Virus record (IMG/VR): IMGVR_UViG_2718218452_000009 | Length of the DNA stretch: 53,117 bases | Direction: 5' to 3' (one strand) | Source: a virus | Lineage: Duplodnaviria > Heunggongvirae > Uroviricota > Caudoviricetes | Part shown: piece after piece, positions 18,001-24,000 of the stretch | Position numbering within the stretch: position 1 is the first letter of the stretch | How the letters are laid out: each line of letters begins with the position of its first letter | Program-made: the position numbers

Positions 18001-21000
18001 TATGTATGCGACATGTTGGTGTTTGGTCGCATACACTGTTGAATATTTGGCTAATGTTATATCAATGTAGAGTTAAAGTCTAACACAACATAGACTCTCT
18101 ATATGCTAACGTCTTGACTATAACTGCAATTATTTTTTCATTAACTTCGTTACCCATGCTTAAACGCGAAATATCTTTCTCATGAGTTTTGTTCAAAAAT
18201 ATCAAGAAATTTTTCATTTCGTTTGGTAATGTATTTAGTTCTGTTTCTGAGAATCTTTTTTCATAAATCTCATCGATTTTATGTTTGCATGTTTCTGATT
18301 GTGATGTATTTAAAATGGCTCTTTCTCCTTGGGTACAGGAGTTTATAACTTCTTTCAGTATTTGTTTTTGGTCTTCTGGGGATGTTCTTTGTCCATTGAA
18401 TGCGTAAGATATCCTGTCTTTTGTTTTGAAAAGTGGCATGGTTATATTTTTTGTATGCTGGAGGTCAACACAAAGAGCTATTGCCTGAGTATTTAGTATG
18501 TCCGGATTATGGGAGTAAGTTGATCTTTTCAAAGCATTAGCACTTGCTGATGCCCCTTCATATGGATTTTGATGAAATAATAGATTTAGTATGTTTACGA
18601 TGAATAAAGACATCATTTGTGGTGGTGTGCCTTTCTCAAGAGAGCGCATGATTGCTCCCGATAAAGAGGACATCAGACTTAATCCTTGTGTTAATACCCG
18701 CTGGGTGGTTTTAAAGGCCGCTTCTTGCGATATAAATCTCTGAGCAGAATTTGGGTTATCAGAAGAACCATGTTTATAAGCTTTATACCATGAGTCACCT
18801 AATATAGCTAAGGCCAATGGTATATCAGCATAACTCACTCCCCTACCTATAGTTCTTACTATGCTACCTGTTTTAACTGCTCCATTAAGCATTAACAGTG
18901 GTGACATGGTTAGTAATGTACTTGTTAAACATAGAGTAAATCGTGCTATAACCGAACCTGTTATTTTTTTATTACTTATACAATACTTAACTTCATCTAT
19001 TAGTTTAGGATATTGATAGAATATTGTTGGTGCATGAAATAAAGTTGCTGATAGTAAATCACCAAGTATGCGTACCTGGGTTATATCTAGTGATAATACA
19101 TTACTTAAGAATGCTTCTGTATTTATTGTTGGAGAAGGTGATGTATATAAAGATGGTTGTTGAGACTGTGAAGGTGATTTGTTATAGTCGCCATTAAAAA
19201 ATAATGCCTGTATGAGCAAGTGAATGCTGATTCCGCCTCCGGCTCTGAACGCATATGGAAGTATCTGTTCGATTTTATTGTGTATGGCCATATAGGCTTT
19301 ATAAAAACATCCTGACTGATTATATACCTGATGATATTGATCGTTCAGAACTCTCATAAGATGGAGAACAGTTTCTGCACTCTCATTCTCTTTTGGTATA
19401 ATTTCATGAATGATGCTGTCCAGTTGATATTTTTGCTTGCATGTTAGGATTTTTGTAATTCTTTCATCGATTTCAATGCATATTGAATTATTTTTATCGG
19501 ATAATAACAAATCATTTTCCTGTGTATTTGTTTGTATCTCTTGTGGGATATTAATTACCACATCCGTACATGTTCTATCCACCTCATTTGTCTTTATGTT
19601 GTCAAGAAAATCATTTAACGTCAGTTGAGAACCCAATTCATTAATGTAGTCCAATGATGACGTAGAAGAGCTATTATCAAGAAAATCGTTCAGAGTGAGC
19701 TCGGAGTCGTTTCTTGTTATCGGATATACATTTGTGGAAGCGGCTAATTTAATACTCCGGTTGCTGGAGGTAGAAGCTGTTGGTTCAGAGGTTGACGAAC
19801 ACTGCATGTCAATGCATACATAACCTTTATTTGAAGTTGAATTTGGAATCAAGTTTCCTCCTGAATTAATGGTTTTCCATAATACTAACTATTGATAAAA
19901 ATATTTTGCATTTCATTAAAATAAAAAATCCCATGGAAAATATTTTTTGTTAGTTATTACATACAGCACATCAGGTCGTCAATATAGTCTAACTATAGTT
20001 ATCACTAAAAACTTGCCTCGATTTTAGATTTTTCCAGTATTTGTAGATATTGCACTGAACACCGAATACGTAGCAGAGGGTGTCTACACGATAACGTGCT
20101 ATGAGCTACCATGTTGTCGAAAAATTGTTAGTGAGTATGACATCAGGAATGTGGTGGTCTGTTTTAATATTTCTATTTCTATTTCTATTTCTATTTCTAT
20201 TTCTATTTCTATTTCTATTTCTATTTGTTGTGATTTTTTTCTTTAGTTCATGTATTTCGATTTGTTTCTGAATTATCGGGGGTAGTGTCTTCCCTTTTCC
20301 CTGAGGCTTATCATGCAGTTATTTTCGCCATCTTGGTATTGTGGAAATACCGACATCCATAGCTTTGGTGAGCTCTGTTCAGGTGGCCAAATTCAGAAAA
20401 CCATTACGGAGGAAGAAGGCGATGGCTAAACCAGCGCGAAGACGATGTAACCGTAAAAGAGAAGATTTAACTGTTAAAAGGATATTTGAGTTACTAAGTT
20501 TCGATAAATCTACCGGGGTATTTAGATGGAAAGTTCCCACTCAGGGAAGGATAGCATTAAATAGTGTTGCTGGAACTTTTGATTCCAACGGTTATTCAAT
20601 GATCATGATAGATGGGCGTAGATATAAAACTCACGTCTTAGTTTTTTACATAACTCATAATCGTTGGCCTGCTGGTCAAATTGACCACGTTAATGGAATT
20701 AGGACCGACAATAGGCCAGAAAATTTAAGAGAATGCCTGCCAATAGAAAATTCAAGAAATATAAGGATCCGAAAGAATAGCAAATCAGGTTGCAGAGGGG
20801 TTACTTGGCACAAACGACAGAAAAAATGGAATGTTAGGCTAGGATTCCATGGCAAGAGTAAACACTTCGGATGCTTTGATGATCTGGAGTTAGCGGTACT
20901 AGTTGCTGAAGAAGCCCGAGATAAGTATTACGGTGATTTTTCCGGCAACGAAAGGAGCACTTATGCGAATCTATCGAAGGAAATGTAAATGTTGCAATGA

Positions 21001-24000
21001 ATGGTTTATACCAAAATATCAAAATCAATATTGGTGTAATGAGATTTGTGGAACCAAGATAGCACTCGAACGACGAAGTAAAGAACGCGAAAAAGCGGAA
21101 AAAGCAGCAGAGAAGAAACGACGACGAGAGGATCAGAAACAGAAAGATAAACTTAAGATTCGAAAACTCGCCTTAAAGCCCCGCAGTTACTGGATTAAAC
21201 AAGCCCAACAAGCCGTAAACGCCTTCATCAGAGAAAGAGACCGCGACTTACCATGTATCTCGTGCGGAACACTCACGTCTGCTCAGTGGGATGCCGGACA
21301 TTACCGGACAACTGCTGCGGCACCTCAACTCCGATTTGATGAACGCAATATTCACAAGCAATGCGTGGTGTGCAACCAGCACAAAAGCGGAAATCTCGTT
21401 CCGTATCGCGTCGAACTGATTAGCCGCATCGGGCAGGAAGCAGTAGAGGAAATCGAATCAAACCATAACCGCTATCGCTGGACTGTCGAAGAGTGCAGGG
21501 CCATCAAGGCGGAGTATCAACAGAAACTTAAAAAACTGCGAAACAGCAGAAGTGAGGTTGCATGAATATCTACGAAAGAATTGATGGCAGCAAATACCGA
21601 AATATTTGGGTAGCTGGCGATCTGCATGGATGCTACACGAACCTGATGAAAAAACTGGAGACGATAGGATTCGACACCAAAAAAGACCTGCTTATCTCGG
21701 TGGGCGATTTGGTTGATCGCGGTACAGAGAACGTAGAATGCCTGGAATTAATCACATTCCCCTGGTTCAGAGCTGTACGTGGAAACCATGAGCAAATGAT
21801 GATTGATGGCTTATCAGAGCGTGGAAACGTCAATCACTGGCTGCTTAATGGCGGTGGCTGGTTCTTTAATCTCGATTACGACAAAGAAATTCTAGCTAAA
21901 GCTCTTGCCCATAAAGCAGATGAACTTCCGTTAATCATCGAACTGGTGAGTAAAGGAAAAAAATATGTCATCTGCCACGCCGATTATCCTTGTGATAAAT
22001 ACGAGTTTGGAAAGCCAGTTGATCATCAGCAGGTAATCTGGAACCGCGAACGAATCAGCAACTCACAAGACGGGATCGTGAAAGAAATCAAAGGCGCGGA
22101 CACGTTCATCTTTGGTCATACGCAAGCAGTGAAACCACTCAAATTTGCCAACCAGATGTATATCGATACTGGCGCAGTGTTCTGCGGAAACCTCACATTG
22201 ATTCAGGTACAGGGAGAAGGCGCATGAGACTCGAAAGCGTAGCTAAATTTCATTCGCCAAAAAGCCCGATGATGAGCGACTCACCACGGGCCACGGCTTC
22301 TGACTCTCTTTCCGGTACTGATGTGATGGCTGCTATGGGGATGGCGCAATCACAAGCCGGATTCGGAATGGCTGTATTCTGTGGTAAGCACGAACTCAGC
22401 CAGAACGACAAACAAAAGGCTATCAACTATCTGATGCAATTTGCACACAAGGTATCGGGGAAATACCGTGGCGTGGCAAAGCTTGAAGGAAATACTAAGG
22501 CAAAGGTACTGCAAGTGCTCGCAACATTCGCTTATGCGGATTATTGCCGTAGTGCCGCTACGCCGGGCGCAAGATGCAGAGATTGCCACGGTACAGGCCG
22601 TGCGGTTGATATAGCCAAAACAGAGCAGTGGGGGATAGTTGCTGAGAAAGAGTGCGGAAGATGTAAAGGCGTCGGTTATTCAAGAATGCCAGCAAGCGCC
22701 GCATATCGCGCTGTGACGATGCTAATCCCAAACCTTACCCAACCCACCTGGTCACGCACTGTTAAGCCGCTGTATGACGCTCTGGTTGTGCAATGCCACA
22801 AGGAAGAGTCAATCGCAGACAACATTTTGAATGCGATCACACGTTAGCGCCATGATTGCCACGGATGGCAACATATTAACGGCATAATATTGACTTTTTG
22901 AATAACTTTGGGGAAACTTGACACCAATAATGGGCGTTTTTTACATGTCATTGATGAGTCTCAATAACCTGCCGCCGAGTAGTTTTTATGCTCTGAATTG
23001 TATTTGTGTAGTAAACATGCTGACTGCAATGTAATAGAGTTTTTTTAGCCTGTAACCTCTTGACGGCATTGAATTGCTTTTGTTATGAGTTGTAAGCCAA
23101 TGTTATCATCTTGTATTGGGGTGGTTATGAAGGATGGTGCGCTGCTCAGGAGTTCTTCACTTTTTATTGCCTACATGGGATGCCTTGGATGGGGGAGTGC
23201 TTATTTCTATGGATGGGGTACTTCTTTTTACTACGGCTTCCCATGGTGGATTGTAGGTGCAGGTGTTGATGATGTTGCCAGAAGTTTATTTTTTGCAGTT
23301 ATCGTCATTGCTATATTTCTTATCGGTTGGGGTATTGGTGTTGTATTCTTTTTCGCAGTGAAAAGAAAACATTCTATGCAAGAGCTAAATGTATTTCGCC
23401 TTTATTTTGCTGTGGAATTATTGTTTGTGCCGGCAATTATTGAGTTTTCTATATTGAGACAGAAGATTCAGGTACCTCTTTTGCTACTGTCAGCAGCGAT
23501 TGCGCTGGCGGTTACAATTTCGATAAGATCTTATGGGCGATTTTTATCGGTATCATGCTTCTATGATAAGCCATTTATAAAAAACATTTTTTTGAGATTG
23601 TGATGATTGCTTTTGTGGCATATTTTTGGCTTTTTTCATTTCTGACAGGATATTACAAACCACAGTTTAAGAAAGAATATGAAATGATTAATTATAATGA
23701 TGGTTGGTATTATGTTCTTGCTCGTTATGATAATTGTCTGGTTTTGTCTACTTCTTTCAATGCAGGTAGTAAAAGGTTTGTCATTTATCAATCAGCACAA
23801 GATAAGAATCTTCAGGTTGATATTGTAAGGACCAGAATTTAATTGGCTGCATAAATAATATTTTAAGTTGCAAGTTGGCTATTCGTAGGAATAGAACCTT
23901 AGGCATGCTGAATGCGTTTTCTGAACATTGTTTTATAAACTGTGTCTGCTTGCTGTTGTGATCCTGCTTTTAGTGATGGTGATGATGGATTTCACCAGCA

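Follow-up and report, generated by a model that had tools for sequence, protein, structure and literature searches.

A probable homing-type HNH-AP2 endonuclease cassette within the 5' end of ninG in lambdoid prophages

Intronless homing and co-conversion of free-standing endonucleases have been reviewed (PMC2988022), with the Seg (GIY-YIG) and Mob (HNH) enzymes of T-even phages, such as SegF, SegG and MobE, among the systems described. Here we analyze a 53,117-nucleotide (nt) stretch of a Caudoviricetes genome, IMG/VR record IMGVR_UViG_2718218452_000009 (hereafter the window), in which an open reading frame (ORF) encoding an HNH-AP2 endonuclease occupies the 5' end of ninG, and a composite ninG, which we call ninG', starts inside the 3' end of that ORF. 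Like the resulting cassette, the Seg and Mob genes lie outside any intron or intein and are linked to a variant, presumably resistant neighbour, and they are inherited with their flanking sequence through double-strand-break repair, which for the cassette would be the expectation (PMC2988022). They are, however, intergenic, have starts of their own and often cut hundreds of base pairs away, whereas the cassette ORF has no start of its own, opens with nine codons of its neighbour fused in frame, and ends within that same gene.

Two further systems come closer in architecture. In nrdA of Aeromonas phage Aeh1, a "genes-in-pieces" case (Friedrich et al. 2007, via PMC2988022), the HNH gene mobE lies inside a coding gene without an intron or intein and host function is kept through downstream re-initiation, as in ninG; there, the two polypeptides into which the host protein is divided reassemble, whereas here just nine residues are left upstream, on the nuclease, and ninG receives a complete substitute N terminus together with the nuclease gene. 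Gene 31 of the lambdoid, P22-like Salmonella phage epsilon34 joins an eaE-like N terminus in frame to an HNH homing-endonuclease body, as seen here, but it lies in the early-left operon, its HNH lineage is another one, related to Lactobacillus phage enzymes, and no linked replacement 5' end restoring the invaded gene was reported (PMC2629481). The nuclease itself shares its domain pair (HNH_3 and AP2) and its D-H...N...N residues with the enzymes of PHROG 99 (T5 F-TflI/II/IV-type proteins and the "HNH homing endonucleases" of Jersey-like phages), to which it is 40-44% identical over residues ~16-174, and its model has I-HmuI and AP2 domains as top structural matches; unlike those enzymes, it carries an N-terminal extension of 12-14 residues derived from NinG and an 11-residue C-terminal read-through tail. 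The invaded gene product, lambda NinG/Rap (PF05766), has been placed in group 24 of the His-Me finger nucleases (PMC5714182). Every ingredient of the locus has a precedent, namely HNH-AP2 homing enzymes, free-standing genes with resistant flanks, Aeh1 nrdA and the epsilon34 fusion. What appears new is the combination, in which an ORF lacks a start of its own and the captured RBS (ribosome-binding site), ATG and nine codons of the invaded gene would travel with a 5' end, equipped with a Shine-Dalgarno sequence (SD), that reconstitutes this gene. We found no paper describing the ninG cassette or this combination, and databases label the two genes "HNH endonuclease" and "recombination protein NinG."

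Block breakpoints were obtained by BLASTN of the window against lambda (J02459) and phage 434 (Table 1). The HNH ORF begins MAKPARRRC, and lambda NinG (annotated "Nin 204") begins MMAKPARRRCKNDEC...; an original prediction, made from the sequence alone, had read these nine shared residues as the retained start of ninG. The resemblance is not a coincidence, given that the DNA is collinear over 20409-20450 and that this 42-base pair (bp) match is itself flanked by the collinear blocks 17401-17621 and 21047-21565. It contains the 3' end of ninF, as the last 13 nt before the start, the ninG RBS (GGAGG), the ATG at 20422 and codons 1-10, which now constitute the initiation region and the first 9-10 codons of the HNH ORF. 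No further in-frame ATG, GTG or TTG lies between 20422 and the conserved N-terminal block of the HNH family, indicating that the HNH body is fused translationally to the ninG initiation region. The ninG ATG is also the only in-frame start present in every upstream context fetched, and in each of these RefSeq has the 567-bp (188-amino acid, aa) ORF beginning there. Annotated starts vary (201 aa in AU6Stx1, KU977420.1 18711-19316; 215 aa in protein cluster P0012; 188 aa in RefSeq), but both the 201-aa start of KU977420 and the in-frame upstream GTG at 20341, which opens a 215-aa ORF, are limited to the context in which an AT-rich moron lies upstream (see below). No promoter for the HNH gene was found on the plus strand between 19800 and 21700.

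The HNH protein matches the Pfam HNH_3 model over residues 68-107 (E = 4.2e-11; 42.7 bits against a cut-off of 24.8) and PHROG 99, "HNH endonuclease" (E = 1.4e-71). The AP2 profile (PF00847) scores 22.2 bits (E = 1.8e-4), under its gathering cut-off of 33.3, and several homologues have a precomputed PF00847 match; the AP2-like domain corresponds to residues 123-171. In a family alignment made with metagenomic relatives, the catalytic D88-H89 (20683-20688), N101 (20722-20724) and N110 (20749-20751) are invariant columns. A ColabFold AlphaFold2 (AF2) model reached a predicted local distance difference test score (pLDDT) of 83.8, falling below 50 at residues 9-11 and 178-188, and its top matches in the PDB were I-HmuI and the AP2 domains of plant proteins. 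The match to I-HmuI (1u3e) has a probability of 1.00, but with E = 8e-3 and a template modelling (TM) score of just 0.37-0.40 over 106 columns. Residues ~123-173 of the model form three strands and a helix (E127-130, E135-142, E145-152 and H155-173), and AtERF1 (1gcc) superposes on this AP2-like part with a root-mean-square deviation of 1.3 A over 51 columns (TMt 0.67); the AP2 domains of TEM1 and WRI1 are further matches. Searching solved structures by sequence returned nothing useful for the HNH protein or NinG'. A packaging-associated HNH protein of the HK97 gp74 kind was considered and rejected, on account of the gene's location in the nin region and its membership of the HNH_3-AP2 family.

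Homologues with less than 60% identity to the HNH protein occur in 3,059 phage records, many of them annotated as homing endonucleases; those of Jersey-like and T5-like phages are 40-44% identical and align from residue ~12-16 to ~174. Family members start 2-6 residues ahead of a conserved LxELLxY...TGxFxWK block and stop ~5 residues past the last AP2 helix. Compared with them, the window's protein has 12-14 additional N-terminal residues, which are the nine from NinG followed by NRKRE, and the 11-residue tail, which reads through the SD and start of ninG'. Both ends of the ORF are chimeric, as judged from these alignments. None of the Hint/intein models of Pfam-A matched the HNH protein, the intron part being judged from ORF structure alone; the two genes are read in different frames, the first stopping and the second starting anew, unlike an intron or intein arrangement.

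The start of ninG' was predicted to lie inside the 3' end of the HNH gene in another frame, as is indeed the case (it is in the +1 frame relative to the HNH ORF); the distance given, 21 bp, needs correction, as the start lies 23 nt before the stop codon, for an overlap of 26 nt with the stop included. Collinearity with lambda NinG resumes exactly where it had been placed, at TGTGGAACC (CGT...). NinG' covers positions 5-192 of the 193 in the Pfam NinG profile (PF05766) and resembles lambda NinG in its 97% DNA identity from codon 29 to the end and in the four N-terminal cysteines that it keeps. It differs in its first 28 codons, which are heterologous and AT-rich, in a CX1-2C instead of a CX4C spacing, and in starting from an SD within the upstream HNH gene. 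Relative to lambda, 64 bp of ninG are absent, corresponding to codons ~11-32 and encoding 22 residues. The motif is RRKC-x-CC...WC-x3-C in NinG' and RRRC-x4-C...WC-x3-C in lambda, so that C8, C10/C11, C25 and C29 of NinG' correspond to C10, C15, C29 and C33; RR(R/K)C consequently exists in two copies, of which the HNH protein has one and NinG' the other. The 84-bp segment encoding the new N terminus is about half identical to its lambda counterpart at both the DNA and the protein level. GC content is 0.39 in the HNH body and 0.29 in the last 84 bp of the cassette, compared with 0.49-0.51 in lambda-type ninG (0.51 for the lambda counterpart).

HNH-less NinG lineages with related N termini exist (MAKAPRRKCKVCNEWF... 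and MRIARRRCKNEEC...), and a distant NinG carries CKCC...PKY.NQ.WC. Because natural NinG lineages thus show N termini of the MRI-, RRKCKxC- and CKCC...PKY-types, the 84-bp segment has the appearance of an authentic 5' end from a diverged, AT-rich ninG, and the re-encoded cysteine motif together with the missing 64 bp suggests that the endonuclease gene arrived already joined to it. The arrangement therefore reads as a replacement, with a 596-bp block in place of 64 bp, rather than as a simple insertion. The original proposal that a mobile endonuclease gene had integrated at the start of ninG holds in part: a foreign HNH-AP2 gene, whose family aligns only from about residue 12-16, lies at the 5' end of a lambda-type ninG and is fused to the initiation region that was kept, and ninG does start anew, from its own SD. 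Insertion followed by a mere restart does not describe the locus, in that 64 bp are gone and the block brings a heterologous N terminus. The right junction falls where a strongly conserved stretch, TGTGGAACCAAG..., begins, and a homologous crossover could naturally occur there. The left junction (...GATGTAA/CCGTAAAAG..., with the slash at the joint) has no comparable homology and looks illegitimate; of the two joints, it would be the only novel fusion, of single origin.

Two carriers have a damaged ninG' with an intact HNH ORF. In one (L008, NZ_CP148461; 3131-4461), IS2 lies in ninG' at window position ~21004-21010, and in the other (L113, PPYF01105303), 283 bp internal to ninG' are deleted (window ~21039-21321).

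We then asked how tightly the HNH body and the new ninG start are linked. Among 5,426 complete Escherichia coli genomes, 537 carry the HNH body and 537 the ninG' 5' segment; in IMG/VR, all 56 loci with the NinG' N terminus have the HNH ORF at the identical offset, and a degenerate pattern of this N terminus found eight metagenomic loci, each with the HNH gene (8/8). The left-junction string was identical in 63/63 cassette-bearing loci searched, which points to a single founding event. A ninG beginning MRIYRRK but lacking the HNH gene, the observation that would have spoken against an insertion junction, was found in none of the collections searched (phage records, IMG/VR, E. coli genomes, metagenomes, protein collections and a representative library). 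With the NinG' N terminus as query, the next best tblastn match in 50,697 phage records had ~68% identity, a word-index search of 5.8 billion proteins with its 46 aa returned short fragments only, and an exhaustive search of 1.84 billion representatives yielded no closer N terminus, just distant NinGs sharing the CKCC/PKY motifs. Among the matches listed in a scan of GTDB genomes, there were lambda-type loci only, probably contaminants.

The 537 carriers amount to about one in ten of the complete E. coli genomes and include O157:H7, O111 and O145 strains; the Shiga toxin 1 (Stx1) phages AU6Stx1 and SH2026Stx1 also carry the cassette. It is found behind intact ninF (alleles 82-96% identical to lambda NinF), behind ninX-ninF, behind the moron with its 590-aa ORF and, in O157:H7, behind an IS30 remnant; downstream, ninH is present or absent and the Q genes differ. 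Sites without the HNH gene, collinear with the reconstructed lambda-type junction, are common (939 E. coli genomes), and genomes of enterohemorrhagic E. coli (EHEC) contain up to 10 matches each to a ninE-ninF-ninG-ninH empty-site query. The element is present or absent at one homologous site of which intact empty versions exist, and the same element occurs in diverged backgrounds while being younger than its flanks.

Nucleotide diversity (pi), calculated by region for the 22 loci with the ninF context and also over all 55 loci, shows a sharp valley over the cassette. It is 0.08-0.26 in ninF, 0.025 over 20401-20421, 0 over 20422-20450 and 0.0005-0.005 in the cassette, and rises again to 0.026 in the next 54 bp and up to 0.11 at the ninG 3' end, so that values of 0-0.005 over 20422-21046 are flanked by 0.08-0.26 upstream and 0.026-0.11 downstream. 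A comparable step is seen within one O111:H8 genome, where two prophages carrying the cassette differ at 0/596 cassette positions and at 17/519 in the ninG body (Fisher p = 2e-6). Polymorphisms of the HNH gene comprise 11 nonsynonymous changes over 444 sites and 12 synonymous changes over 120 sites (pN/pS ~0.25). The HNH ORF is under purifying selection; when 60 IMG/VR and E. coli loci were scanned, by tblastn or annotation, 59 had it without interruption.

Based on these data, we consider it probable that the locus holds a homing endonuclease cassette of single origin and of the free-standing HNH-AP2 type, located within the 5' end of lambda-type ninG and spreading among lambdoid prophages. 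The cassette would consist of the HNH-AP2 body and of 28 initial codons from a diverged, AT-rich ninG that brings an SD of its own, and the observations fit its entry into many lambda-type nin regions, or recombination with them, in which the linked tracts were very short. The source was most likely a phage with the endonuclease gene immediately upstream of ninG. A single illegitimate join past codon 10 of a lambda-type ninG would have put the HNH body in frame with the RBS, start and nine codons; on the other side, the foreign 5' end of ninG would have become linked to the lambda-type body through a homologous crossover at TGTGGAACCAAG..., which is conserved. Translation of the HNH protein would then begin at the initiation region of ninG, on the delayed-early transcript from pR and with an overlap with the ninF stop in loci whose ninF is intact, and that of NinG' at its own SD and ATG within the HNH 3' end; with two separate starts, both genes would stay expressed without an intron or intein. 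By analogy with the intronless homing of T4 seg and mob genes, the nuclease would cut an HNH-less ninG during mixed infection or co-induction, within or close to the 64 bp replaced by the cassette, and the double-strand break would be repaired from the cassette genome, with homology in ninF and the ninG start on the left and in the ninG body on the right. The empty-site sequence, a candidate for the nuclease target, is broken up in the carrier allele and recoded in its right half; displacement of that half by 596 bp and its recoding could make carriers immune. That homing rather than ordinary recombination drives the spread is inferred from this analogy. Beyond this, the proposal of an actively homing element, which colonises an ORF without an intron or intein in a previously undescribed way by capturing the start of its target, brings a recoded, cleavage-resistant 5' end with an SD that restores the target gene and drives conversion among EHEC prophages, is one that we hold only tentatively and regard as somewhat doubtful.

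Several observations weigh against the homing interpretation. Many of the 537 carriers fall in a few clonal EHEC lineages (O157:H7, O111 and O26), and the prevalence therefore overstates the number of transfer events. In the O111:H8 comparison, 14 of the 17 differences in the ninG body lie past 21423 and the tract next to the cassette has only 3/376, so that the boundary is less sharp than the statistic suggests. An isogenic empty site was not found, the best being 98.9% identical, which leaves exact conversion tracts unreadable. HNH-less lambda-type ninG and the cassette coexist within single genomes, an observation compatible with repression in lysogens and lending no support to activity. 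The donor lineage was not found, the collections searched holding no closer NinG N terminus, and among 5.8 billion proteins the HNH protein has no relative between 47% and 99% identity. Finally, lambdoid phages recombine freely, and a neutral or useful segment of single origin could reach many backgrounds without being driven by a nuclease.

This last point leads to the main rival view, that the cassette is a passive mosaic module, its HNH gene inert or kept for some other reason, and that ordinary lambdoid recombination and the clonal expansion of EHEC account for its distribution. Pervasive lambdoid mosaicism, visible close by in independent joints (ninH present or absent, different Q genes, a breakpoint near 21420), speaks for this view, as do the predominance of EHEC serotypes among carriers and the HNH-less and HNH-bearing ninG genes found side by side in single genomes. 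Both pN/pS and the intact catalytic residues argue against an inert relic, however, and the diversity valley is bounded within tens of bases on both sides across many ninF alleles, which would require many close-in recombination events, whereas a double-strand break at the site explains it economically. We consider a passive module unlikely, though it deserves to be taken seriously. A different role for the same enzyme is that of an exclusion or competition nuclease, which the prophage would keep in order to damage superinfecting or co-induced HNH-less lambdoid phages, with conversion as a by-product. Anatomy and selection suit this idea as well as they suit homing, homing endonucleases do cause marker exclusion in T-even crosses (PMC2988022), and EHEC genomes, given their numerous empty-site matches, hold many competing lambdoid prophages. 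The sequence data do not separate it from homing; the lack of an own promoter makes expression in the lysogen, needed against a superinfecting phage, unlikely, and we judge the idea improbable.

The original prediction taken literally, in which a bare endonuclease gene inserted after codon 9-10 and the rest of ninG gained a new start in situ, accounts for the RBS, ATG and nine ninG codons retained by the HNH ORF and for the newness of the ninG' start. It does not account for the absent 64 bp, for a cysteine motif that is fully re-encoded or for an RR(R/K)C that is duplicated instead of split. Moreover, divergence in situ cannot give the step in identity between the 84-bp segment (29% GC, about half identical) and the adjoining ninG body (97%), and the natural lineages with similar N termini make the segment look heterologous. 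We regard this literal version as very improbable and retain a homing-type cassette of single origin as the best explanation.

The window prophage is lambda-like, with int-xis, exo-bet-gam, kil, cIII, a cI-like repressor, cro, cII, O, P, ren, ninB, a dam-type methylase and ninE, followed after the region of interest by ninI, Q, lysis genes and lambda-type head and tail genes. The region of interest is 100% identical to that of E. coli E2865, C7 and O111:H8 strains. From 21571, lambda homology resumes with ninI and Q; as predicted, ninH is missing between ninG and ninI, and the ninG stop overlaps the ninI start (21562-21565), the same arrangement as in phage 434. Other cassette carriers have ninH, which identifies this ninG-ninI joint as an independent mosaic joint.

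Table 1. Features of the ninF-ninG interval and its surroundings (window coordinates)
Feature	Position	Strand	Evidence or remark
Lambda-collinear blocks	17401-17621, 20409-20450, 21047-21565, 21571-22881		BLASTN
ninE and first 49 nt of ninF	17401-17621		Lambda locus 1179-1399; 96.4% identity
Whole remodelled ninF-ninG interval	17573..21565	+	BLASTN against lambda J02459/phage 434; annotation of identical region in E. coli E2865; parts in order: ninF 5' remnant, 2.8-kb moron, ninF 3'/ninG start remnant, HNH cassette, ninG body
ninF 5' remnant (49 nt)	17573..17621	+	ninF start = lambda locus 1351
AT-rich moron, 2.8 kb	17622..20408		In place of 101 nt of ninF
ORF590 (590 aa)	18080-19852	-	PHROG 9230 (function not assigned); no Pfam or NCBIfam match
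TATTTC hexanucleotide array, perfect, 9.8 copies	20168-20226		Between ORF590 and HNH gene
Lambda-collinear 42 bp	20409..20450	+	Lambda 42419-42460 (locus 1501-1542); 40/42 identical, E ~6e-14
HNH-AP2 endonuclease ORF, 188 aa	20422..20988	+	Pfam, PHROG, family alignment, AF2 model
Foreign AT-rich cassette, 596 bp	20451..21046	+	Replaces 64 bp of lambda ninG, lambda 42461-42524 (locus 1543-1606)
SD of ninG' (AAGGAG)	20952..20957	+	Within HNH ORF 3' end, 5 nt before ATG 20963; read from sequence
Heterologous ninG' 5' end, 28 codons (84 bp)	20963..21046	+	Re-encodes four-cysteine N-terminal motif
ninG' (Rap) ORF, 200 aa	20963..21565	+	Pfam NinG E = 7.4e-84; PHROG 171
Lambda-type ninG body	21047..21565	+	Lambda locus 1607-2125; 96.9% identical
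ninI phosphatase	21562..22227	+	Abuts ninG (ATGA overlap)

The moron upstream of the cassette (20-45% GC) lies in the middle of ninF and is separate from the cassette, as other genomes have an intact ninF at the same place. The same module precedes the HNH cassette in the Stx1 phages AU6Stx1 and SH2026Stx1, and a frameshift divides its ORF590 in some genomes (L031, L033, L039 and L104). Loci vary in the distance from ORF590 to the HNH gene, for the most part by a multiple of 6, showing that the TATTTC array behaves as a variable number tandem repeat. Homology of O157:H7 with the window starts at ~20154-20180, either where this array begins or slightly upstream of that point.

Other HNH-AP2 genes were seen in the same regions. 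In E. coli 14EC007 (L007, NZ_CP024131; 3107-3649), a second, different HNH-AP2 remnant (35% GC, frameshifted) lies within ninF just upstream of the ninG cassette, between positions 1456 and 1461 of the lambda locus, leaving ninF in two annotated pieces; it also occurs in strain SW07096 (H389). The small nin ORFs appear to have been invaded repeatedly by this nuclease family. A lambdoid early-right region of IMGVR_UViG_648276659_000002 (L055) has three HNH-AP2 genes, at about 835-1413, 2460-3026 and 5159-5671: the first lies in the interval between the helicase gene and ninB, the second is that of the ninG cassette, and the third, downstream of Q, is of the typical free-standing kind and has a start to itself (MKEIKLTPEM...). 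In addition, fragments of lambda-type ninG turned up in assemblies labelled Veillonella, Kitasatospora, Paenibacillus, Bradyrhizobium, Segatella metagenome-assembled genomes and others (L090-L103), and the 48-kb "Campylobacter phage CJLB-4" (MW057783.1) has a lambda-type ninF-ninG whose match to the window, compared over this stretch only (96.8% over 625 bp), is the same as that of lambda. All of these are most likely lambda control DNA contaminating the sequencing projects.

The product of ninG, Rap, is a junction-resolving recombination nuclease, so that the element is lodged in the very machinery by which its repair intermediates would be processed. The cassette suggests a route by which a homing-type nuclease gene may enter a coding region without a splicing element, namely through capture of the start codon, a linked heterologous 5' end and an internal SD, and it is an element both common and unstudied. 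Since lambda itself represents the empty site, the system should be very tractable experimentally. If active, the enzyme would cut site-specifically, its target lying in lambda ninG, and would be a plausible promoter of EHEC prophage recombination beside Q-stx; should homing indeed be active, the cutting of HNH-less ninG during co-induction would be one motor of nin-Q-stx mosaicism.

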